From positions 139,715 to 203,714 of the forward strand of contig JAHPZI010000028.1 in NCBI GenBank assembly GCA_019058295.1: a stretch of DNA of 64,000 bases, written 5' to 3'. A program made the position numbers and the translations under genes. Positions within the stretch are counted from its first letter, which is position 1. Each line of letters begins with the position of its first letter. This DNA comes from Promethearchaeota archaeon (GTDB taxonomy: Archaea > Asgardarchaeota > Lokiarchaeia > Sigyniarchaeales > SOKP01). Of the stretch, positions 7,910 to 46,322 are shown in pieces. The notes below the pieces were generated by a model that made no database searches, was not told the origin of the DNA, and saw nothing but the letters and a program-made list of their open reading frames with translations.

Positions 7910-8194
7910 ATGATGACAAAAGAAAAAGGCATTGACAAAGAAAGTCTATTAAGTTATATAAAAAAGGCAATTAAGTTATTATGTGAAAACAACTTATCTG
8001 AAGTGGTAATTTTATCATCTTACAAAATAAATTCTGTTCTAAAGGAGAATTTCGGCGTTAACATAAAAGTCGATAAAATTGGGAGAATATTAAGCGGTAT
8101 AGCTAAGCGAAATCAATTAAAAAGATTAAGTACCTCAATACCTAAATACAAATTACGAATATCTAATTTCTCCAGTTTGAAATTTAAGATTTGA
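7910..8194 (+). CDS. Small basic hypothetical protein, possible winged helix
   Basis: 94-aa ORF filling the gap after an AT-rich promoter-like spacer; IGRILSGIAKRNQL...PKYKL. Confidence 0.55.
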   Translation: MMTKEKGIDKESLLSYIKKAIKLLCENNLSEVVILSSYKINSVLKENFGVNIKVDKIGRILSGIAKRNQLKRLSTSIPKYKLRISNFSSLKFKI

Positions 8195-9515
8195 TTATTT
8201 TTTTTAATTTTTCAGTTGCTAAATTCATTTCTTTATAAGTTTCTTTAAGATTATTCAGTTCTGTGTTCAATTTTTCAATTTCATTTGTAATATTCTGCTC
8301 TAAAGATGATATATCCGTTGATATGATATTCTCTATTTTATTAGAGAAATTTTCTGTCTCGTTTGAGACTTCTGTGATGTTTTCTGAGGTCTTGTTCACT
8401 GATTCTTCCAACTTAAAGGTTAAACTGCTAGAATTGCTAATTTTATCTGAAAGGTCTTTTAAATTATTTTCTATGTGATTCATAATATTCTTAAAGTTTG
8501 TTTCTACGAGGTTATTTAAATCGTTCAAAATCTCGTCTTTAGATGAAGATAATTGGGTTATTAAATCTCTTTGGGCGTCAATCCGAATATCTAAATACAT
8601 AGATATATTTTCCTTAAAGTTTTCAGCAATTTCATCTAAATTTCTTTTAAACCAGTTTGCTACATTGGAAATTCCGTCAGAGATTTTACCTTTCATATTA
8701 CTCGTTGAATTTTTCAGAAGCTCAGATCCGGTTAATGCCCCATCTCTAATATCTTTAGTCCAGGTACCTAATTGATGTTCAAATTGATCCATAAATAAAT
8801 CTGCAAATTTTGAAGTTCCTTCTTGAAATCCTGAAATTATTGGTCCTAGGGCGAGTATAGGTTCTTTTGACATAGGGATCTCTTGGAGATCATCAAGAGG
8901 AGATTCCGCCAATTCATTAATTTCTCTGATTAGGATTGGTGCTTTTTTCTGAGTATCTTCAACTAATTTTTGAACCCATTTAAAATAGTCAAGAGTGCTT
9001 GGAAATTCCAACTCGTATTCAACTTTATGATATTCATTATTTTTATCGTCGGAAGAATCATTTAATCTATAAATTTCAAAACCTAAATTCCCTTCTTTAC
9101 CCATTAAAGTGTGATCGAAAACAACATAAAAACCATAGGGTTTTTGTTCATTCTGGAAAAAGGAATGGTGGGTTTTGATTGCTGAATCAGAAAAAAATAG
9201 CCCCCATCCTGGGTGGGATGAGTACCAACCTACTATATTCATTTTTTTGCTAGCATATCTATTTTCAATTTCAGAAAAAGTATTATAATCATCTGAATTA
9301 AAACCTATTGATATTTTTTTTCCATGAGTGATAGGTATGGCATTAATAAGATCAATATCTTTATCGTTTAATTTACCAATGCAAATTCCCATCACCTCAA
9401 CACTTTCGTCTAATGCTTCATTTCCAAATCTTAAAACATGCGTTATCATGTTTCTAAACGCCTCTTTTTTAATTTTTATCTTTCCTTCTCCTGAATTTTC
9501 TTTTTGTGTCGGCAT
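8184..9515 (-). CDS. MPN-domain protein with degenerate JAMM motif (MPN-minus) and long helical/coiled-coil C-terminus
   Basis: EVMGICIG; GWYSSHPGWGLFFSDSA (first His and Asp ligands lost). Confidence 0.85.
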   Translation of the reverse strand: MPTQKENSGEGKIKIKKEAFRNMITHVLRFGNEALDESVEVMGICIGKLNDKDIDLINAIPITHGKKISIGFNSDDYNTFSEIENRYASKKMNIVGWYSSHPGWGLFFSDSAIKTHHSFFQNEQKPYGFYVVFDHTLMGKEGNLGFEIYRLNDSSDDKNNEYHKVEYELEFPSTLDYFKWVQKLVEDTQKKAPILIREINELAESPLDDLQEIPMSKEPILALGPIISGFQEGTSKFADLFMDQFEHQLGTWTKDIRDGALTGSELLKNSTSNMKGKISDGISNVANWFKRNLDEIAENFKENISMYLDIRIDAQRDLITQLSSSKDEILNDLNNLVETNFKNIMNHIENNLKDLSDKISNSSSLTFKLEESVNKTSENITEVSNETENFSNKIENIISTDISSLEQNITNEIEKLNTELNNLKETYKEMNLATEKLKKIIKS

Positions 9516-9520
9516 TTTAG

Positions 9521-10975
9521 TTATTCACCCCCTCCTTCTAGATTTTTAATTTTATTTAATAAATCCTCCTTCTGAGACTCCATTTCTTTTAATTTATCAT
9601 TTAAAGATTTAAAAGTGGCTTCAATTTCAGATGATGATGAATCATAATTCGATAAAAATTCTTGTGTTTCATTACGGTAATCAGTAAATTTATTTAATAT
9701 ATTAGCTATTTTTTCTTTTAAATTGCTTTCAATTTTTCCACAAAATCCCCTTAATTTTTCTGAAGTTAACCTTTCTAAAGATTTAGTCTTTTCAGATATT
9801 TTTTCTAAAGATAATCTTTGTTGAGCTAAACTTTCTGAAGAGAGTTTATTTTTTTGATTAATTTCTGTCAATTTATTTGAATTTTCAGCGAAATTTTCAC
9901 TAATTTTATTTAATAAACCATTGACGTTTTGTTCAAATAATTCATTTATCTGTGTAGGGAGTTCTTCTTTTAATTTTTCAATAAAATTTTTTGCAATTTC
10001 ATTGTTTTTATCAAAATTTTCAAACTGATCACCTATATAGGTCTCAAGATCATCTAGCTTATATTTTAATGAGAATTTAAAATTATTCTGAAGCTTATCA
10101 ATTCCTTTCCTTAAATCATCTTTTAAATCAACTAAATCATCTCTAATTTGAATATTATTTTCCATTATATTTTTTATAATCTCTTGGCTCCAAGAGTTTA
10201 AAAAATTTATTAGTGGTTCAATAGATAATTGTAAAAATTGCGAAATTCCATTATGTAAAGCTGAGAGAATATCTTCTAAATTTAATTGGGGCTTAGCCGC
10301 TAATAATTCCCTTTTGCTTGGAAAGAAAATCTCGCCGAAAAGATCAGGGGTTTCGTTAATCTCCAAAATTGGGGGTTCTTTTGAGTGAATACAATTAATT
10401 AATTCCATTATTTTAAAGTAATAATCTATACTGTCAGGAGGTTCTACAATAGTTTCTACCTCATGATAATCTGATTTTTGACCCTTGGACGGATCATCAA
10501 GTCTAAAAGTTCTAAAACCTAAATCTCCCTGATTTTCTAAAAAAGTATGATCAAAAACTATGCCTATAGCGCTAGGATTTGGAGTTTGCCAACCCAGCTG
10601 ATTTATTTTGTCTACTCCCGAGAAAAAAATGTTTAACCCAGGATGTGAATGGAACCAACCAACACTGAAAAGCCCCTTATCAGCGTATTTTTCATCTATT
10701 AGAGCAAAAGACACATAATCTTCAGGAGCAAAAGCAACCTCAATCGAACCGCCATGCGAAATTGGCACAGCATCTTCAACAATTATATTTTTAATGCCCC
10801 TTTTATTTGGTTCACCTTCAAGGCGTCCAATAAGTATTCCCATTACTTCCTTGTATTGTCTCTGATCTCTTACTCTATTACCAAATCGCAATATATGGAC
10901 GAGCATTTTGTAATAGGCAAGTGGTTTGATAAGGACGGACCTATCGCTCTCTTGATGACGTTTACTCAAATTCAT
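9521..10975 (-). CDS. MPN+/JAMM metalloprotease (Rpn11/CSN5-like) with long coiled-coil C-terminus
   Basis: LAYYKMLVH...EVMGILIG; GWFHSHPGLNIFFSGVD. Confidence 0.88.
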   Translation of the reverse strand: MNLSKRHQESDRSVLIKPLAYYKMLVHILRFGNRVRDQRQYKEVMGILIGRLEGEPNKRGIKNIIVEDAVPISHGGSIEVAFAPEDYVSFALIDEKYADKGLFSVGWFHSHPGLNIFFSGVDKINQLGWQTPNPSAIGIVFDHTFLENQGDLGFRTFRLDDPSKGQKSDYHEVETIVEPPDSIDYYFKIMELINCIHSKEPPILEINETPDLFGEIFFPSKRELLAAKPQLNLEDILSALHNGISQFLQLSIEPLINFLNSWSQEIIKNIMENNIQIRDDLVDLKDDLRKGIDKLQNNFKFSLKYKLDDLETYIGDQFENFDKNNEIAKNFIEKLKEELPTQINELFEQNVNGLLNKISENFAENSNKLTEINQKNKLSSESLAQQRLSLEKISEKTKSLERLTSEKLRGFCGKIESNLKEKIANILNKFTDYRNETQEFLSNYDSSSSEIEATFKSLNDKLKEMESQKEDLLNKIKNLEGGGE

Positions 10976-11081: not shown

Positions 11082-11774
11082 TTAATGCTTATGAGGTATT
11101 TCGCGACCGCAGTCTGGACAATATTTAGGAATCAAATTTTTACCGCAATAAGGGCAAAATTCTGATGATTTTTCACTAACTTCCTCTGTCGAAACTACAG
11201 CAGATGATTTTTCACTAACTTTTTCTGTCGAAACTTCAGCAGATGCAGGAGTTTCTTGAGGAGTACCTCCTGGAATTGAAGGTAATTTTCTTTTTGTTTT
11301 TATAGTAGATGAAGCAGATGCCTGTTCTTCTTTTGCTCTTTCAGCAGCCACTCTTTCTTTAAATGCTTTTCGCTGTTCTTCTAACTTCTCCTCTTGAGTT
11401 TGTTCACCTTCTTGTTTCACCCAACCAGGACCCTTAAAAGCACCTTTGATCTCACTTTGAGGTACTTTTTCTAATTCAACTTTTTTCGTTTCAGCAACAG
11501 GTGCAACAGCTCTTTTTTCTTGTTTTTTACTAATTGCTTGTTTTATTAACGCTTGAGTTGTTTTCATAATTTGGTGTGGGTTTATATTTGGTAGCGTAAT
11601 AGTTCGTAGGACCCAGCCAACAATATAATTCTGATTTGGAAAGTCTCCATCTCCCATTTCAGCATCTTTATATACATAAGAATCGATTACGTCCTTACCT
11701 TTAAGAAGGCGAGACGCCCAGCGTTTATTTATAAGTCCCAGTTGTAATCGATAAGAAGTACCTGAAATTCCCAA
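11082..11774 (-). CDS. Hypothetical protein with low-complexity linker and C-terminal zinc ribbon (probable start ATT at 11810)
   Basis: CPYCG...CPDCG; AAGGTGA ribosome-binding site upstream of an in-frame ATT. Confidence 0.75.
   Translation of the reverse strand: MGISGTSYRLQLGLINKRWASRLLKGKDVIDSYVYKDAEMGDGDFPNQNYIVGWVLRTITLPNINPHQIMKTTQALIKQAISKKQEKRAVAPVAETKKVELEKVPQSEIKGAFKGPGWVKQEGEQTQEEKLEEQRKAFKERVAAERAKEEQASASSTIKTKRKLPSIPGGTPQETPASAEVSTEKVSEKSSAVVSTEEVSEKSSEFCPYCGKNLIPKYCPDCGREIPHKH
11164..11241. repeat. Two-copy 39-nt coding tandem repeat (AxVSTExVSEKSS)
   Basis: gatgatttttcactaactt..tctgtcgaaact.cagca starts at both 11164 and 11203. Confidence 0.8.
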
Positions 11775-11972
11775 CTGGGATGATAAGGGGATGAAACCTT
11801 GTTCTGTAATGATATTTCACCTTATTATTATTGTAATATTTTGATTATGATTATTATAATAATTATAATTTTACTAATTTATAATTTTATATGCAAGAAA
11901 AAGCATAAATAGAAAAAGTTTTATTATGAATCAACAAGCTTAAAAATATAATAAAAAAACTCATAATAAAAA

Positions 11973-12929
11973 ATGACTGTAATTATCCCAAAAAAAGCTT
12001 ATTTAACTATCGTAGCAGCGTCTGTTAGATTTGCAAATCCTAAGATTCCCTTTGACGATTGGTTAGAAATATATGGTATTTTTACGGGAAAATCTTCCAA
12101 GAATGGTAAGGATTTAATAATTACTGAAGCATATAATATAACACACCAAGTAAAAAGGGAAGAGGATATAATAGACAAGGTATATTGGTCTGATGAAGAT
12201 TATATCTCATTTAGTATGATTGATGACGATGCTTTTTCAAGAGGCGAATATACAGTAGGATGGTACCATTCTCATCCTGGTCACAGAGTAATGATGACTA
12301 GTTTAGATATTCGCACTACAGCAACTTATCAACAATATAATCCTCTTGCAGTTTCTCTTGTATTTAATCCACAACGATTAACCAGACAAATTGAAGTTCC
12401 AGCAAGAAAAGGAGATCCCGAACTAAGATTGGATTGCGATCCCGGTTTTAAAATTTTTAGATTGGGCAATCCTGAAGATGTTGATTCAAATTACCATGAA
12501 GTATATGATTATAAGATTGATGGATTTGAAAGTGAAGAGCAATTAGTAGAATATGCTAAAAAGTTCGCTATAGAAATAACAGATTTATTTCCTAAAGATA
12601 ATGTTGTTGAATCATATAATAATTACGTCAATGATAAATTAAGACAATTAAACTCATTATTGATGGGAACTGAAGATTATTTGAAATCATTAGCTCGAAA
12701 AGATGAAAAAAGTAGGATCCCTGAAGTGTTAGAAAATCAAAAAAAAGAGATTAATAAATTTGTAGCAGAAACATATGTTAAAATAGAAAATATGAAAGAA
12801 TTCCTTGATTATCTCGAATATAAAGAAAAAGATGTTATCATTCCAAAAGTTAAGGACGTCTTATCCAATTGGGATGAAAATATAGCTAATTTAGATAAGA
12901 AATTAGATGAATTATCAAAAAAATTCTAA
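11973..12929 (+). CDS. MPN/JAMM domain protein with helical C-terminus
   Basis: LEIYGIF; GWYHSHPGHRVMMTSLD. Confidence 0.85.
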   Translation: MTVIIPKKAYLTIVAASVRFANPKIPFDDWLEIYGIFTGKSSKNGKDLIITEAYNITHQVKREEDIIDKVYWSDEDYISFSMIDDDAFSRGEYTVGWYHSHPGHRVMMTSLDIRTTATYQQYNPLAVSLVFNPQRLTRQIEVPARKGDPELRLDCDPGFKIFRLGNPEDVDSNYHEVYDYKIDGFESEEQLVEYAKKFAIEITDLFPKDNVVESYNNYVNDKLRQLNSLLMGTEDYLKSLARKDEKSRIPEVLENQKKEINKFVAETYVKIENMKEFLDYLEYKEKDVIIPKVKDVLSNWDENIANLDKKLDELSKKF

Positions 12930-13053
12930 ATTACTTAAAATCAGTTTTTTATTCTCAAAATCAGTAGTTTCTAACTTTAAAAAATCATAATAATATTTTT
13001 AATAATTGGTTTGTACCAAAAATCTTTTAATTCCTTTTATTTTACTACTTACA

Positions 13054-15264
13054 ATGAAAAAGATTAATTTTCCCTTCACAGCGATATTAGGACAAGATAA
13101 AATGAAGATGGGTTTAATTTTAAACGTTATAGACCCACAAATAGGAGGAGTTCTTTTAACAGGACATCAAGGGACGGGTAAGTCTACGGCTGTAAGGTCT
13201 TTAGTAGAAGTTATGCCAAAAATAGAAGTTATCGAAGATTGCCAATTTTCTTGTGATCCAGCATCAAATATTGATGATCTTTGTGCTTCTTGCCGCCAGA
13301 AAAAAAAGGAAGATAAATTAAAAACTTATGTACGCAATATGAGAATCGTTAATCTTCCTCTTGGTGTAACAGAAGATATGGTATGTGGGAGTTTATCAAT
13401 TGATAAAGTTCTTACAGAAGGAACTTCTGAACTTCATTCAGGCTTATTAGCTAAAGCTAATCGTGGTATTTTATATGTTGATGAAATAAATCTTTTACAA
13501 GACCATATAGTTGACGTTCTGTTGGATGCCGCAGCGTCAGGGATCAATATAATAGAGCGCGAGGGAATATCAGTTTCTCATCCATCTCGATTTGTTTTAG
13601 TAGGTTCGATGAACCCTGAAGAAGGGGAATTAAGACCACAGATCGCAGATAGGTTAGGTTTAGAAGTTAAAATAAAGGCACCGAGAGATCCTACATTGCG
13701 GGCCGAAATTACGAAAAGAGTAATAGAATTTGACGATAATCCAAAGGATTTTATTGAGAAATATGAAGAAGAGCAAGAAAAATTAAGGCAAAAAATACTT
13801 AATGCGAGAAAGATCATTAGTACGGTTGAAATTCCAGCGCGTATTTACGAATTAGTATCGAAAATTGTTAATGATCTTGGAATTTTTTCACAAAGAGCAG
13901 ATATTACATTCATTAGATGTGCTAGGGCGAACGCTGCTTTAAATGGTAGACAGAGGATTGAACAAGAGGATCTCAATGTTGCAATGGATTTAGTATTCGA
14001 ACATCGAATAGCGTCATTACATTATGAAATGACACCTAATGAAATAAAAGCGAAAATTGCCGAAGTTTATGGAAAAATTGAAGAAGCTATTGAAGATCCA
14101 GAAGTATATAAATCAAATCCCGAGACTGAAGGACCTTTAAAGCACGATGATACTCCTCAAGAAGAATTTAAGCGACAATCTATTGATCCTGATAAAGTGG
14201 ATGTTGGGGAAACAAAAGAACAAAAATACCCTCCTCCTAAATATCCAGATAAGAAAAAGAGAAAAGCAAAACCAGCAGGAGGTTGGAAAGTTAAAGATAT
14301 ACCGTTTGAAGAAGCGGATGATTTTAATTTATCAGATGATGATTTTGATATAACATCATTTATTTATAGAATGGAAAAGAAAATGACTTCTATTTTAGAT
14401 AATATTCGCAGAGAACGTAGAGTTTCTGATTATGGAGGTCGGGGAATTGGTCGTAGAATTAAAATAGCATCGTCTCAAAAAGGAAGGTATGTATCATATC
14501 GGACTCCTAGAGGTCAGCGACCAAAAAGTATAGCTTTAGATGCGACAATTAGGAACTACTTAAAAAATATTGTGTACAATCAAACGGAAATTAGCTTTCC
14601 AATTCGATTTAATAAATATGATTTAATGGATAAAATCTATGAATATCGAGCACCATTAGCGCTATTTTTTGTTCTTGACAGTTCTGCGTCTATGTACTAT
14701 GTTATTAAACAAATGACTGATGTTATTTTATCTTTACAAAAGGAAGGATATAGAAAAAGAGATAAAATTTGCCTTATAATCTTTAGAGGCAAAGAGGCAG
14801 TTGTCTTGCAGAAACCGACTGTCATTTTTAAATATGCTTTAAATAAATTAAAAAAAATAGAGGGAAAATCATATACACCAATGGCAGCTGCCTTAAGGAA
14901 AGTTATGGATTTAATAAAGGCAGAGAAAATGAAAAATAAAAATATTGTTCCTGTAATTTTTATTTGTTCAGACTGTGGTGCTAATATTTCTGCGAAATAT
15001 CCTGAGTTAATTGCTCAAATTGAAAGTGATTATGCTATAATTATTCAGGAATTAAAAGAATTGACCAAAAAGCTTTCAAAACAAAAAGTTCATATAGTTG
15101 TGTTAGAACCAAAAAAATCATACGCAACGCAGGCACTAGGTGTACATCCATATTCTGCTGATAAAATTAAGAAAAATTTCAAAAGGTATGGAGGAGCTGA
15201 GATATATAAATTTGATCGATATAATCCTTCATCGCTAATTTTAGAATTAAAAAAGATTCTTTAA
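13054..15264 (+). CDS. Mg/Co-chelatase ChlI/ChlD-like AAA+ ATPase with C-terminal VWA domain
   Basis: FPFTAILGQ, GHQGTGKST, LYVDEINLL, NPEEGELRPQ; VLDSSASM MIDAS motif, YTPM, CSDC. ATG at 13054 preferred over TTG at 13006. Confidence 0.88.
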   Translation: MKKINFPFTAILGQDKMKMGLILNVIDPQIGGVLLTGHQGTGKSTAVRSLVEVMPKIEVIEDCQFSCDPASNIDDLCASCRQKKKEDKLKTYVRNMRIVNLPLGVTEDMVCGSLSIDKVLTEGTSELHSGLLAKANRGILYVDEINLLQDHIVDVLLDAAASGINIIEREGISVSHPSRFVLVGSMNPEEGELRPQIADRLGLEVKIKAPRDPTLRAEITKRVIEFDDNPKDFIEKYEEEQEKLRQKILNARKIISTVEIPARIYELVSKIVNDLGIFSQRADITFIRCARANAALNGRQRIEQEDLNVAMDLVFEHRIASLHYEMTPNEIKAKIAEVYGKIEEAIEDPEVYKSNPETEGPLKHDDTPQEEFKRQSIDPDKVDVGETKEQKYPPPKYPDKKKRKAKPAGGWKVKDIPFEEADDFNLSDDDFDITSFIYRMEKKMTSILDNIRRERRVSDYGGRGIGRRIKIASSQKGRYVSYRTPRGQRPKSIALDATIRNYLKNIVYNQTEISFPIRFNKYDLMDKIYEYRAPLALFFVLDSSASMYYVIKQMTDVILSLQKEGYRKRDKICLIIFRGKEAVVLQKPTVIFKYALNKLKKIEGKSYTPMAAALRKVMDLIKAEKMKNKNIVPVIFICSDCGANISAKYPELIAQIESDYAIIIQELKELTKKLSKQKVHIVVLEPKKSYATQALGVHPYSADKIKKNFKRYGGAEIYKFDRYNPSSLILELKKIL

Positions 15265-41129: not shown

Positions 41130-42902
41130 ATGGCTAAAAAGGATTCGAAATCTAAAATGGAAACATCTCCCGTAGAAATTTTGAAGAAAGAACATGAAAG
41201 CTTAATTAAAGCGAAATCTGAAGCTCTAAGCATGCGATTAGAGGAGTTATCTAAAAATAAGAGAATTGAAATAGATGAAATTAAAAGCCAAATTAGTGCA
41301 CACGAAAAAGAAATAACTAAGATCGAAGAAAAATTCGCAAAGGAAGAAGCTTCAGTAGAAAAAGACGTTGATGATGAATTTGCTCCTCAAATAAAGAAAA
41401 TTACATCAGAATTAGAGATTAAACAGAAGAAATTAGATGAGGCAATTAAAAAGGAAGAAGAACTAACCGTAAAAAAGAAAGCCTTAATTGATACTATTAA
41501 AAATTTAAAAAAAACCCAAAAATTAGCAATATCTTTAGCAGAAAAATCTAAAGTTCTAAGTACGCAATTAAAAAGCCTTCCAGAAAAAGAAGAATCCTTG
41601 GAGGAAAAAACTACTTCGAAGTTAGGAATTGATAATGAATTTGACACCCAAATAAAGGATATTGACGCTAAATTAAGCGCTGAAGAGCAGAATTTAGAAG
41701 CTATTATCAAAGATATTGACGATTGGACCGTAAAAAAAAATGAATTAAAGGATATAGTAAAAAATTTGAAGAGAGAGAATGGGATCTTAGAAAAAGCGAG
41801 ATCTAAAATTCTAAATCCTCGATTAGATGAATTATCTAAAAATAAGAAAAATGAAATAAACGAAATTAGGAAAAATATTAGTGCGAACGAGAAAGAAATA
41901 ACAAAGGTCGAACAAAATTTTGCAAAGAAAGAAGCTTCTTTAGCAAAAGAAGTTGATAATGAATTTGATCCTCAAATAGCTAAAGCTTTATCAAAATTAC
42001 AGAAGAAATTAGAAGAAACAATCAAAAAGGTTGATGTAACGCCCGTAAAAAAGGAAGAATTAGTAAGAAAACCAAAAATCGAAGTAAAACCTAAAAAGGA
42101 GATCGCTCCTGAAGAACTTAGAATATGCCCCGCATGTGGGCGAGATACTAAAATTTCTCATAAATTCTGTAAATTTTGCGGTATAAGCTTTAATCGTATT
42201 GATGCTGTTATGACAAAATTATCTGACGCAGAAAAGAAAGAATTAGAGTCAGTTCTTAAAAAAGAGAAAAAGGAGAGAATATGTCCCGCATGTGGGCGAA
42301 AAATTAAACTAGGTATGAAATTCTGTAAATTTTGCGGCGTAGAAATTAGTCGTATTGAAGCAATATTGACAAAAGCAACTAAATCAGAGGCTAAAGAATT
42401 AGGAGCAGTACCTAAAAAGGATTTGAAACCTAAAAAAGTAGTCGCTCCCAAAAAGCAAAAAGCAGGTGTAATAGCAGCCGCTGATACGGTAGGGCTATCC
42501 GAAACAGAAAAGAAAGAATTGGAAAGAACAGAATCTGAGATGGATATAAAAAAGAAAGAAGTTAAATGTATTGTACATAGAGGGCCTATCGTTGGAAGTA
42601 TATATCTCTGTCCAAACTGCATGACCTATTATTGCGTAAAATGCGCTAAAGCATTGAAAGAAAAAGGTGAAGCCTGTTGGTCTTGTGGAGAAAAGATTGA
42701 AATTGCCGTATCTGAATCAGAAATTAAACAAAGAATTAAAGATTATGAGACCAGATTAGATTCTCTTAAAATAACTGTAAAAAATCTTGATGAAAGTTTC
42801 TTCACCGGTGCCATTGGTAAAGAAGAATATATAAAAATGAAAGATTCTCTGACAGAAAAAATAGGGGTTCTATTAAGAGAAATTAATAATTATAAAAGTT
42901 AG
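41130..42902 (+). CDS. Coiled-coil repeat protein with two zinc-ribbon modules and a C-terminal RING-like domain
   Basis: Internal duplications; two CPACG...CKFCG modules; CIVH-CPNC-CVKC-CWSC. Confidence 0.75.
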   Translation: MAKKDSKSKMETSPVEILKKEHESLIKAKSEALSMRLEELSKNKRIEIDEIKSQISAHEKEITKIEEKFAKEEASVEKDVDDEFAPQIKKITSELEIKQKKLDEAIKKEEELTVKKKALIDTIKNLKKTQKLAISLAEKSKVLSTQLKSLPEKEESLEEKTTSKLGIDNEFDTQIKDIDAKLSAEEQNLEAIIKDIDDWTVKKNELKDIVKNLKRENGILEKARSKILNPRLDELSKNKKNEINEIRKNISANEKEITKVEQNFAKKEASLAKEVDNEFDPQIAKALSKLQKKLEETIKKVDVTPVKKEELVRKPKIEVKPKKEIAPEELRICPACGRDTKISHKFCKFCGISFNRIDAVMTKLSDAEKKELESVLKKEKKERICPACGRKIKLGMKFCKFCGVEISRIEAILTKATKSEAKELGAVPKKDLKPKKVVAPKKQKAGVIAAADTVGLSETEKKELERTESEMDIKKKEVKCIVHRGPIVGSIYLCPNCMTYYCVKCAKALKEKGEACWSCGEKIEIAVSESEIKQRIKDYETRLDSLKITVKNLDESFFTGAIGKEEYIKMKDSLTEKIGVLLREINNYKS

Positions 42903-43095: not shown

Positions 43096-43353
43096 ATGAG
43101 AATCTCTGTGGAAGATAGTCGGACAGGCAAGCTGATTAAGCTCGATGTAAAAGAACATCATCAGATTGAACGAATTGTAGACATTATCGTCAAACATATG
43201 GGGATTATTAGCACAGAACAACGCTCATATACTTTAGTTTTGAACGATCAGGAATTGCCTACAACCATAACAATAGAAGATGCTATACACAAATATGGCT
43301 TAAAGGAAAATGACAAATTAGCCTTATGGGCTAGAGTAGTTGGGGGCTTTTAA
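43096..43353 (+). CDS. Ubiquitin-like modifier precursor (beta-grasp, ends RVVGG-F)
   Basis: MRISVED.RTGKLIKLDV, YGLKENDKLAL, di-Gly near C-terminus; adjacent to E2/E1/JAB genes. Confidence 0.88.
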   Translation: MRISVEDSRTGKLIKLDVKEHHQIERIVDIIVKHMGIISTEQRSYTLVLNDQELPTTITIEDAIHKYGLKENDKLALWARVVGGF

Positions 43354-43913
43354 TCGTCGATTATAACAATATCGTCATCTGCCTCTTCTGCTTCTGCTTT
43401 TTCAAAATCATACTTTTCTTTAAGATCTGCCATCGTATTATGTTTGAAAAATTCAGTAGCCTCTAAACAAATAGGATAATTTAAAGGATCATCTGGATTT
43501 GGATTTTCTACGAGTAGTTTTAGTGCTTTTACAGTGGTATCCATATCAGATAAGAGAGACCATTTCTTTAAGACATTAAGGCAAATGTATCCCGTTCCAG
43601 TTTCTCCAGAACCTAATTCGACCGGATGGATATTTGGGTGGAATATAGGGGAATACCAAGCAAAATCTATGCCTCCTGGATAGGGGAAGTTTCGATTAAG
43701 CTTCAGCATAATTTTATGATTCTTTTGAGGGATTAATTCCAAGCTTTGCGATCCCTCCTTTAAAACAAAGCCTAACGATTTTATATTTACAATTAATTCA
43801 ACTGAGTTTTCCTTGCGAATTATACTATTATCCTCAAGAACGTTTAAACGTTTTAAAGACTCCAATTCATTTTCGATACGGTCTTTCCAAATTTCAAGTG
43901 GAAGCTCTGGCAT
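43350..43913 (-). CDS. Ubiquitin-conjugating enzyme E2-like
   Basis: FPYP, IFHPNI, GYICLNVLKKWS, NPNPDDPLN. Confidence 0.92.
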   Translation of the reverse strand: MPELPLEIWKDRIENELESLKRLNVLEDNSIIRKENSVELIVNIKSLGFVLKEGSQSLELIPQKNHKIMLKLNRNFPYPGGIDFAWYSPIFHPNIHPVELGSGETGTGYICLNVLKKWSLLSDMDTTVKALKLLVENPNPDDPLNYPICLEATEFFKHNTMADLKEKYDFEKAEAEEADDDIVIIDD

Positions 43914-43992
43914 TTCTAAACCCGTTTATTTAATTATAAATTTTATATACCAATACTAATATTTATAACTTTGTTCATAACCATATAAGAAT

Positions 43993-44874
43993 TTATTTTT
44001 TATTAAAACTGCAGATCCAACACTTAGGATCTTTTCTTTTTTCTATTATATCAAATTTATTTGTGAGCCCATTGTAATTTAGTTGTTTATTTATAAGAGG
44101 TTCTCCTATATTTGGATGCCATTTTCCATGTTCTTTGAAATAATCTATTCCTAAGACAAATTTTAATACCTGTTGTGTTTGAATTCCACCAATTATAGCG
44201 GTAGTAGTAATTATTGTTGCCATTTTTCCCATTGACTCACCATTTTCGGATTTTATTTCTTGTCCAGTACAGGAAAACTTTTTCCACATCAAATTTAAAT
44301 CAGCACTAGTTATTCCACATTGTAAACAAGCTGCATTTTCAACTCCTGAATATACAGCTTGTACAGAACCAAAAAACTCATCGATACCACTGTCAATAAA
44401 AGGAATACCATAATAATAGGCATAATTATTTGCTTGAAGTCGGGCTTCGATATTATCGAGACATGAACAGACAACATCAGACTGTTTATAAAGATTTTTA
44501 TCAATATCATTTAAATCCTGCTTTAATGCAACAATTTCTACCTCTGAATTTAAATTTTCGCAGGCTTCTTTAACAACATCAACTTTATATTTATTTTCAA
44601 TTGTACATTCCATGTTAAATAATACACACCGATTAAGATTTGATTTTTCAATAATATCATAATCGATTAAAATAATTTTTCTAATCCCAGTAAGTACTAG
44701 ATTTTTAATTAATTCATTTCCAGTGGCACCAGCACCCACAACCATAATCGTTGCATTCGATATTTTATTTTGATCCCATCCAGGGATTCGTTTTTGACGA
44801 TCGTAAATATCCTCATCTATCGAATCTAATCCTAATACTTTATAATCTTTATTAATATCTTTTTTTCTAGTCAT
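43993..44874 (-). CDS. Ubiquitin-activating enzyme E1-like (ThiF family)
   Basis: YDRQ, VGAGATG, SNLNR, CLDNIEAR, CLQC, FSC, CWIC. Confidence 0.92.
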   Translation of the reverse strand: MTRKKDINKDYKVLGLDSIDEDIYDRQKRIPGWDQNKISNATIMVVGAGATGNELIKNLVLTGIRKIILIDYDIIEKSNLNRCVLFNMECTIENKYKVDVVKEACENLNSEVEIVALKQDLNDIDKNLYKQSDVVCSCLDNIEARLQANNYAYYYGIPFIDSGIDEFFGSVQAVYSGVENAACLQCGITSADLNLMWKKFSCTGQEIKSENGESMGKMATIITTTAIIGGIQTQQVLKFVLGIDYFKEHGKWHPNIGEPLINKQLNYNGLTNKFDIIEKRKDPKCWICSFNKK

Positions 44875-44898
44875 TTTTGTTATGAGCCAATAAATTAT

Positions 44899-45390
44899 TC
44901 ATTTTGGGGAAATAATAGCAAAACTTATTGGTTTGTATCCATTTTCAGAATTATTATCAAGACTAAAAAATTTATAATATTTTTTTACGGGATCCACGAC
45001 TAGAGCTACTTGATACGACTCAGGAAAGAAAAATCTCTGAGTTTCCACATCTGTCGAACTCAAGAAACAGCCAAAATCGGGATGTGAGTGCCACCACCCA
45101 ACTATTCTTAAGTCTTCATTATTTCTTTTACTTTTTAACTTCTGAAATTTTTTTTCGTATTTACCCGCAGTTCCTTCTATTTGTGTCGTTGAATATTTAT
45201 GGCTATGGACAGCACCATTAATAAAAAGTTGATTTTCAATGACAACATAAATTATATCATTCCATTTTAAAATGTTCCCAATTAAGTAGCCAAAAATTTC
45301 TAATTCGTTTTTTGTACATAATTTTTTAATGTTATTTAAAACAGCTTCTTCCATATATACAGGGAATACAAAATTTTCGTCAATTGTCAT
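44899..45390 (-). CDS. JAB/MPN+ isopeptidase (Ubl-processing/deconjugating)
   Basis: EIFGYLIG; GWWHSHPDFGCFLSSTD; LVVDP. Confidence 0.92.
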   Translation of the reverse strand: MTIDENFVFPVYMEEAVLNNIKKLCTKNELEIFGYLIGNILKWNDIIYVVIENQLFINGAVHSHKYSTTQIEGTAGKYEKKFQKLKSKRNNEDLRIVGWWHSHPDFGCFLSSTDVETQRFFFPESYQVALVVDPVKKYYKFFSLDNNSENGYKPISFAIISPK

Positions 45391-46322
45391 TTTTCATTTT
45401 GCCTTGCTTTTAATTTCTCTAAGACTGAAATCTTTAACATTTCAGTAAATATCGAATAGATTTTTTCTTTTGAGTCTTCTTTAATCGCTGAGAATCCATA
45501 TGTTTTTATCTCAAAGGCTTTTTCAATTTTATCAGGTTCAAACGCAGAATCCTTTAAATCTTGAAAATTTGCTATAATATAAAAATCGGCTTTCTTAACT
45601 AATGGTCTCAATCGGTTAAAAAGACTCCTAGTTCTACCCAAGTTACTAGCTGCTGAATTAGATACAATACAAATAATTTCGACGGTGTCTAATAATTTCC
45701 TATAAAGTTTTGATTTATTTACCAATTCTTCTAAATCTATTTCTCTTAATTTAAATTGTTTTAAATCTTCTACACCTGATACTGCTATAAGCTTCTCAAT
45801 TATTTCATTTAAATCCTCATCCAATTCAAGGACTGTCTGACCGGGGAATAAATCCATTATTGTAGACTTCCCTACGCCAATCTCACCAATTAATAATATT
45901 TTCGGAGGTATAAATATATGTTCTTCGATGAAGTCATCAAAATTGTTGAAAGTTGAAACATTTCCGTCAAAATTTTTTAATAATTTACTGTATCTTTTTA
46001 AAAATTCAGATTTCATTAGTTCTACTTTAGGTCTAGCCTCTTCTTCTAAGTCGTCTATATCGGTAACAACAATAAACATACAACCAAATTCATCATCATA
46101 AGAATATATAAAATTGAAGTTTCTAAAGTTTAGAGCCTTAATTTCGCCCCCTTTTATTTCTTGTGCAAAACTGCTAATTGCTGTAAGAAAACCACTAATT
46201 AAATCGTCATCAGCTTCTAAATCACTGGAGCTCTTTCCAAAAAAATTTTTAGAATAACACAAAATGCCTCCTGCCGCGATAATAAGAACCCTAGAGATCA
46301 TTTTTATATCCTTTTTTTCCAC
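45387..46322 (-). CDS. Longin/roadblock-like domain fused to a divergent small GTPase
   Basis: DDLISGFLTAISSFAQEI; GEIGVGKST, ANFQD, FSA. Confidence 0.82.
   Translation of the reverse strand: MEKKDIKMISRVLIIAAGGILCYSKNFFGKSSSDLEADDDLISGFLTAISSFAQEIKGGEIKALNFRNFNFIYSYDDEFGCMFIVVTDIDDLEEEARPKVELMKSEFLKRYSKLLKNFDGNVSTFNNFDDFIEEHIFIPPKILLIGEIGVGKSTIMDLFPGQTVLELDEDLNEIIEKLIAVSGVEDLKQFKLREIDLEELVNKSKLYRKLLDTVEIICIVSNSAASNLGRTRSLFNRLRPLVKKADFYIIANFQDLKDSAFEPDKIEKAFEIKTYGFSAIKEDSKEKIYSIFTEMLKISVLEKLKARQNEK

Follow-up and report, generated by a model that had tools for sequence, protein, structure and literature searches.

Tandem tailed MPN paralogues in one family of Asgard archaea: a putative enzyme/pseudoenzyme pair with apparent recurrent loss of the partner's zinc site

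Pairs of an active (MPN+) and an inactive (MPN-) MPN subunit lie at the catalytic core of the proteasome lid, the COP9 signalosome, eIF3, BRISC and BRCA1-A. To our knowledge, only the ancient end state of the transition from an active dimer to such an enzyme/pseudoenzyme pair is known. Two such pairs, BRCC36-KIAA0157 (ABRO1) and BRCC36-Abraxas, each consist of an MPN+ isopeptidase and a paralogous MPN- pseudo-deubiquitinase and form the core of BRISC and BRCA1-A; in the solved complex, the C-terminal helices form a joint coiled-coil bundle beside the fused MPN domains (PMC4579573). Among archaeal proteins, CsRpn11 of Caldiarchaeum subterraneum and the Rpn11-like JAMM proteins of Asgard archaea are eukaryote-like MPN+ proteases of ubiquitin (Ub) operons; those of the CsRpn11 type are small, consist of one domain and have their genes within the Ub/E1/E2/E3 operon (PMC6043591). 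Here we describe two adjacent MPN genes, A and B, in a 64,000-nucleotide (nt) stretch of an Asgard genome (Promethearchaeota archaeon, assembly GCA_019058295.1, contig JAHPZI010000028.1, positions 139,715 to 203,714; hereafter, the window). The literature that we searched covers CsRpn11 and the Asgard Ub systems (PMC6043591, PMC5654768) and yielded no published description of the A/B pair.

A first-pass annotation of the window had described two co-oriented MPN genes 5 bp apart, with a complete JAMM motif in the first and two of the three Zn ligands missing from the second, and the open reading frames (ORFs) bear this out (Table 1). Both proteins pass the Pfam profile for the MPN fold (PF01398, cut-off 22.5 bits), and they are 27% identical over 461 alignment columns, which take in both the MPN domain and the tail in full (BLASTP, E = 4e-53), a likeness far above chance level. 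In A, E43 (within KEVMG) is followed by HSH-PGLNIFF-S-GV-D, which makes up a complete E...HxH-x7-S-xx-D motif with all of the JAMM residues (E43, H109, H111, S119 and D122) in place. The corresponding segments of B read VEVMG and SSH-PGWGLFF-S-DS-A, so that the first His is replaced by Ser and the Asp by Ala, with the Glu, the second His and the Ser retained. The same two ligands, the first His and the Asp, are gone in the 13 nearest metagenomic relatives of B. Judged by its motif, B of the window is an MPN- pseudoenzyme that has kept the fold, has lost Zn ligands and is still under selection. The motifs quoted as common to both proteins are also present, except that B reads NMITHVLRFGN instead of starting with KM.

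The pair was sought in 151 Asgard genomes, 25 of which (6 genera) belong to the GTDB family of the window, one family of Promethearchaeia, the Loki-type Asgard class, and 126 of which lie outside it. The NCBI labels of the JBHL-series metagenome-assembled genomes (MAGs), namely, Hod-, Hermod-, Odin- and Thorarchaeota, contradict one another, clash with the placement of these genomes in a single GTDB family and were not used. Full-length A and B are present in all 25 family genomes, whereas none of the 126 genomes outside the family contains a full-length version of either gene, only short MPN matches. In a collection of 5.8 billion proteins, we identified 251 relatives of B, and all named ones come from Asgard MAGs. 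The synteny required by the first-pass annotation is found elsewhere as well: A lies directly upstream of B in 76 of the 78 species-level loci, and the genes overlap or are separated by no more than 15 nt in 72 of 73 loci. In one species (L058:1451-3000), gene A is represented by two ORFs (232 and 261 amino acids (aa)) in different frames next to an intact B (EHHSD), which might be due to a frameshift, an assembly error or an insertion.

The catalytic sites of the two proteins have had strikingly different fates. The quintet E/H/H/S/D is intact in A of all 74 species, whereas for B, 38 of 78 species have an intact quintet and the other 40 a damaged one. The lesions differ from clade to clade and include SSH..A in the genus of the window, LSH..G, HSR..D, (I/L/V)SH..T..D and (I/L)SR..T..T, along with SSH..E or S, ISH with the Ser gone, CSH combined with an E-to-Q replacement, and the E-to-Q replacement alone. 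A maximum-likelihood tree of B, built with the five catalytic columns masked, calls for at least 7 changes between the intact and damaged states, and the detailed states need 22. One clade in which all three ligands are replaced nests inside a well-supported clade with otherwise intact members. These patterns indicate that the site of B was lost at least 7 separate times, in chemically different ways; it is hard to see how H, H and D could have been regained from such varied starting points, so that B most likely descends from an active ancestor. The dead second gene of the first-pass annotation thus holds for the window and for the damaged half of the family but not for the orthologues that keep HxH..D, and because there are 38 of these among 78, the dead state appears to be recurrent and lineage-specific rather than ancestral. 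Degeneration is confined to B: gene C, a third MPN paralogue at the locus, is intact, and the other MPN paralogues examined keep HxH..S..D.

The damaged B genes are not decaying. All B genes, damaged ones included, are full-length ORFs, and the ratio of nonsynonymous to synonymous substitution rates (dN/dS) is 0.12-0.33 for damaged B (eight pairs), compared to 0.09-0.28 for A in the same genome pairs and 0.25-0.63 for intact B; for B of the window and its same-genus relative, the value is 0.21. Purifying selection therefore still acts on the damaged copies. An invariant site in A combined with a dispensable site in a constrained B is the pattern that would be expected of a catalytic subunit and its structural partner.

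AlphaFold2 monomer models, built on alignments of 21 orthologues, confirm the long helical tail that had been noted in both proteins. The model of B (predicted local distance difference test score (pLDDT) 74) comprises the MPN domain (residues 1-190), a low-confidence linker (192-233) and a single unbroken helix (227-442), and that of A (pLDDT 72) shows the same build, with the MPN domain at about 1-196, a linker and a single helix at 246-479. At 0.15 nm per residue, the helices of B (216 residues) and A (234 residues) would extend about 32 and 35 nm, respectively. Tail lengths, counted from the linker anchors, are nearly fixed (mostly 245-250 residues in B and 282-300 in A); a test for covariation between the two gave a Spearman coefficient of 0.21 (p = 0.08) and is powerless at such near-constant lengths. 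Within the linkers, the segments that are disordered in the monomer models carry invariant motifs: A has EPPILEINE, and B has both PI.I.E..E and LQEIP. Because they are conserved yet disordered, these linkers are likely to fold on a partner, as is typical of such segments, and look like interaction sites.

Taken together, these observations lead us to favour, with a probability of roughly 0.6, the reading that A and B are translated together and assemble 1:1 into one stalked MPN complex, with A as the isopeptidase and B in a structural or regulatory role. We prefer it because the genes are tightly coupled, the site of A is invariant and that of the constrained B dispensable, and because the tails are co-linear and of fixed length and the linkers resemble conserved interaction segments. 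In such a complex, the MPN domains of A and B would pair, as in every solved eukaryotic MPN dimer, and the homologous, co-linear helices would lie side by side as a stalk. A would provide the Zn-dependent isopeptidase site, the site of B being dispensable, and in the species with an intact B, the complex would hold two sites. The likely substrates would be conjugates formed by the ubiquitin-like system whose genes lie 33 kb away. As for its history, an ancestral B that was an active MPN+ enzyme would have arisen with A by duplication in the ancestor of the family, followed by repeated, independent decay of the Zn site in B.

Several observations weigh against this reading. In the half of the B orthologues with an intact JAMM, the pair is MPN+/MPN+, and B itself may act as an enzyme in these species. 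In the closest sequenced relative, a genome of the same genus (G144, L001:3820-9865), A and B lie 6 kb apart; the four unrelated ORFs in between include one for a hexapeptide-repeat transferase and one for a 336-aa protein whose match to Arf is borderline. No other separation of A and B was seen, and given this one, co-transcription of the two genes is not obligatory. The Ub operon of the window encodes a small JAB protease of its own, which bears on the proposed substrate. Finally, prediction of the full-length A+B complex from orthologue alignments lends weak support. The interaction prediction score from aligned errors (ipSAE) was 0.60, 0.63 and 0.60, compared to 0.00 for the best of three controls, with agreement between the runs in at least 65% of contacts and partner pLDDT of at least 70. 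In calibration, 58 of 80 solved complexes passed the mark, as did 2 of 110 mismatched pairs, and the scores of 0.60 or below belonged to only 7 of those 80 solved complexes and to both passing mismatched pairs. Given that similar complexes have been solved, the pass may reflect memorized structures and is not counted as evidence either way; moreover, close paralogues would also pass, so that the heterodimer and the homodimers are not told apart.

The separation of the genes by 6 kb, the intact half of the B orthologues, which could work alone, and the weak support from the prediction would all fit a situation in which there is no A/B complex. B would then act by itself as a non-catalytic MPN protein, for instance, as a receptor or scaffold that binds ubiquitin-like proteins on a stalk of its own, and the adjacency of A and B would result only from tandem duplication and shared regulation. 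We regard this as unlikely in view of the near-universal tight coupling of the genes, the co-linear tails of fixed length and the fact that the MPN domains of the solved Rpn11, CSN5 and BRCC36 act dimerized with a second MPN subunit (PMC4579573).

The tails themselves raise another difficulty for a stalked complex. Hydrophobicity along the tail of B peaks at a period of 3.65 residues (11/3), with a power of 2.4 against a shuffle 95% level of 1.5, and is marginally periodic in A. This is not the period of a classic heptad (3.5) and would also fit lipid-binding amphipathic helices; furthermore, the B-family profile matches apolipoprotein A-IV (E = 1.9e-8) and, weakly, apolipophorin-III and ApoA-I, and there is a Pfam Apolipoprotein match below the cut-off. 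The tails might accordingly be apolipoprotein-like helices that lie on a membrane or lipid surface instead of forming a coiled-coil stalk, with the A-B contact secondary, in a membrane-tethered deubiquitinase system of a logic comparable to that of endosomal AMSH. The same profile, however, also matches the ZorA tail, chemoreceptors, the heptad repeat 1 (HR1) of spike proteins and designed bundles, so that the signal may be compositional, a period of 3.67 is found in straight helical bundles too, and the conserved locus includes no transmembrane or lipid-related gene. We consider a lipid-bound role of the tails improbable and retain the 1:1 stalked complex of A and B as the preferred reading.

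To place the pair among MPN proteins, we constructed a tree of MPN domains from A, B, C, other paralogues of the family and MPN proteins from seven further Asgard families. A and B form sister clades (support 99 and 96, respectively; 91 for the sister relationship in the Shimodaira-Hasegawa-like approximate likelihood ratio test (SH-aLRT)), from which the clade of C is separate. They are nested in a larger clade (SH-aLRT 98) that includes only the tailed paralogues of the family, five in all (A, B, C, one of ~370-390 aa and one of ~515-520 aa), plus one C-like sequence from a sister family. Other tailed or MPN paralogues are found at G000:C12:7191-7691, G000:C21:273201-273782, L101, L102 and L104. 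In the genus of the window, a search with B as the query found no ~520-aa paralogue, only a 266-aa MPN protein of another clade.

Both A and B are nearest in sequence to MPN+ proteins, namely, CSN5, Rpn11, CsRpn11 and BRCC36. The best PDB sequence matches of A are Caldiarchaeum CsRpn11 (6fjv, the top match, E = 1.6e-8), CSN5 and Rpn11, and the best Foldseek matches of the B model are CSN5 and Rpn11 chains (E down to 3e-13; template modelling score up to 0.75 on the target), with BRCC36 among the best matches of B in both sequence and fold. Against the PDB, the B-family profile gives E-values of 8.9e-11 for Rpn11 and 8e-10 for CSN5, compared to no better than 4e-3 for Rpn8; BRCC36, too, is matched far better than Rpn8. 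We therefore rejected B as an orthologue of Rpn8 or CSN6, given these values and the sister relationship of A and B within one archaeal family. As for PCI partners, the conserved locus has no PCI gene, and the PF01399 matches elsewhere in the genome fall in large repeat proteins and are non-specific, as 4 of 14 control prokaryotes also match.

The first-pass annotation left open whether the pair prefigures or parallels the eukaryotic complexes. The similarity of A and B to CSN5 and Rpn11, the closest among solved structures in sequence and fold, and their occurrence in an Asgard archaeon with a eukaryote-like Ub system would be in line with a pair ancestral to, or orthologous with, eukaryotic Rpn11/Rpn8 or CSN5/CSN6. 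Such an origin is nevertheless highly improbable, considering that neither A nor B was found at full length in the 126 Asgard genomes sampled outside the family, and in view of their sister position within a family-specific clade of five tailed MPN paralogues, the much better match of the B profile to Rpn11 than to Rpn8, the ancestral MPN+ state of B, the lack of a long single-helix tail in the eukaryotic proteins and the lack of a PCI gene at the locus. Because of the one-family range, the sister relationship within a family expansion and the profile nearer to Rpn11 than to Rpn8, we infer that the pair is a lineage-specific, convergent parallel to the eukaryotic MPN+/MPN- pairs, not their forerunner.

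A and B are flanked by further conserved genes (Table 1). The Z-A-B operon is present in all 25 family genomes across the 6 genera, and Z lies upstream of A in 21 of 21 loci and in most of the 78. In these 21 loci, V and C occupy one strand, divergent from Z, A and B; one genus (g4) departs from this order, with C elsewhere and V outside the fetched stretch. Z has a conserved N-terminal domain with an invariant core, PNxN..V.W...T...PNINPHQ.MKT, and the invariant short motifs VELEKVP, GW and LPSIP in a variable E/K-rich linker ahead of the ribbon (11082-11774); it has no family match beyond the zinc ribbon and looks like an adaptor with linear binding motifs. Orthologues of Z start with M-T-E-Q-G-F-, and the window reads, in frame, stop-N-I-I-T-E-Q-G-F- upstream of the listed TTG start; the true start is probably an ATA or ATT codon near 11810-11813 (11775-11813, minus strand).

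Table 1. Features of the A/B locus and of the ubiquitin-like operon, in positions of the window
Feature	Position	Strand	Basis
Gene A, MPN+ (JAMM) protein, 484 aa	9521-10975	minus	ORF; Pfam JAB 41.2 bits
Gene B, MPN paralogue with degenerate site SSH..S..A, 443 aa	8184-9515	minus	ORF; Pfam JAB 56.9 bits
A-B spacer, 5 nt, A stop to B start, translational coupling	9516-9520	minus	coordinates
Gene Z, first gene of the Z-A-B operon, C-terminal CPxCG-x8-9-CPxCG zinc ribbon	11082-11813	minus	Pfam DZR/zinc ribbon; synteny
Gene C, third MPN+ paralogue, 318 aa, HSH..T..D, shorter helical tail	11973-12929	plus	Pfam; synteny
Gene V, ChlI/ChlD-type AAA+ ATPase fused to a VWA domain	13006-15264	plus	Pfam; synteny; downstream of C
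Coiled-coil protein, 590 aa, several zinc ribbons, Cys-rich RING-like end, adjoins the Ub operon	41130-42902
Ubiquitin-like protein (Ubl)/E2/E1/JAB operon, eukaryote-like, complete	43096-46322
Ubl, 85 aa, ends VVGGF (one residue past GG)	43096-43353
Small JAB protease, 163 aa, CsRpn11-type	44899-45390

Gene C, divergent from A and 1 kb away, went unmentioned in the first-pass annotation; its catalytic site is intact in all 17 aligned orthologues. V is the most conserved gene of the locus, with 75-91% identity across the family, and scores 583 bits against NCBIfam TIGR02442, which is below the cut-off of that model. CobN, the large subunit that would be the expected partner of V, is found in only 8 of 26 family genomes, which weakens the assignment of V as an ordinary cobaltochelatase subunit; CobN was not found in several family genomes that are 98-100% complete, nor in the genome of the window (79% complete). 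V thus resembles a 'chelatase' ATPase left without its partner and is genetically linked to the MPN gene C. That V lies together with C and the Z-A-B operon would be compatible with a larger MPN/AAA+/VWA machine but falls short of demonstrating one. That Z, A and B and the divergent C and V form one archaeal machine, in which stalked MPN subunits work with a CobN-less AAA+/VWA ATPase, is a tentative proposal that we hold to be possible but doubtful. If true, this five-gene machine would be an independently evolved, PCI-less analogue of the proteasome lid or of a BRISC-like Ub-processing complex, with its dead subunit B caught at several stages on the way to a pseudoenzyme.

The Ubl that the first-pass annotation placed at 43096 does exist, as part of an operon that encodes the Ubl, an E2 (UQ_con), an E1 (ThiF), the 163-aa JAB protein and a 311-aa protein with a weak small-GTPase match. 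Conjugates of this system are candidate substrates of A and B.

The pair of active and dead MPN paralogues in a tight operon, as originally proposed, is upheld for the window by motifs, identity and synteny and refined by the variation within the family. The A/B family appears to show the transition from an active dimer in progress, given that B comes with an intact site or with one, two or three ligands gone, next to an unchanging A, and it offers a graded set of natural variants in which to compare the contribution of a dead MPN partner. It further suggests that the MPN+/MPN- design evolves readily outside eukaryotes and cautions that the eukaryote-like features of Asgard archaea may not all be ancestral.

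Comparison with the described systems brings out both likenesses and differences. Similar to CsRpn11, A is an MPN+ protein; by contrast, A and B are tailed, paired proteins of 443-484 aa encoded away from the Ub operon, in which there is a separate CsRpn11-type gene. With Rpn11-Rpn8 and CSN5-CSN6, the pair shares the MPN+/MPN- logic, A and B being nearest to Rpn11 and CSN5, and the AAA+/VWA gene in the same locus faintly recalls the Rpt ring and Rpn10, by analogy only, as the AAA+ domain of V belongs to the ChlI/ChlD clade, unlike those of the Rpt/PAN-type unfoldases. Unlike in the lid and the COP9 signalosome, B is not an Rpn8 or CSN6 orthologue, the locus has no PCI subunits, and the tails are long single helices rather than the segments of the lid helical bundle. 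There is also a likeness to BRCC36-Abraxas/KIAA0157, in which, as presumed for A and B, an MPN+ protein pairs with a paralogous MPN- protein and both have C-terminal helices; the co-linear, homologous helices of A and B might bundle as in BRCC36-KIAA0157. However, instead of two short helices, A and B each have a single rod (216-234 residues), B stems from a recent duplication of an active copy in one archaeal family and is intact in about half of the species, and no partners of the BRCC45/MERIT40 type are evident. The arrangement would thus be a convergent counterpart of Rpn11-Rpn8, CSN5-CSN6 and BRCC36-Abraxas.

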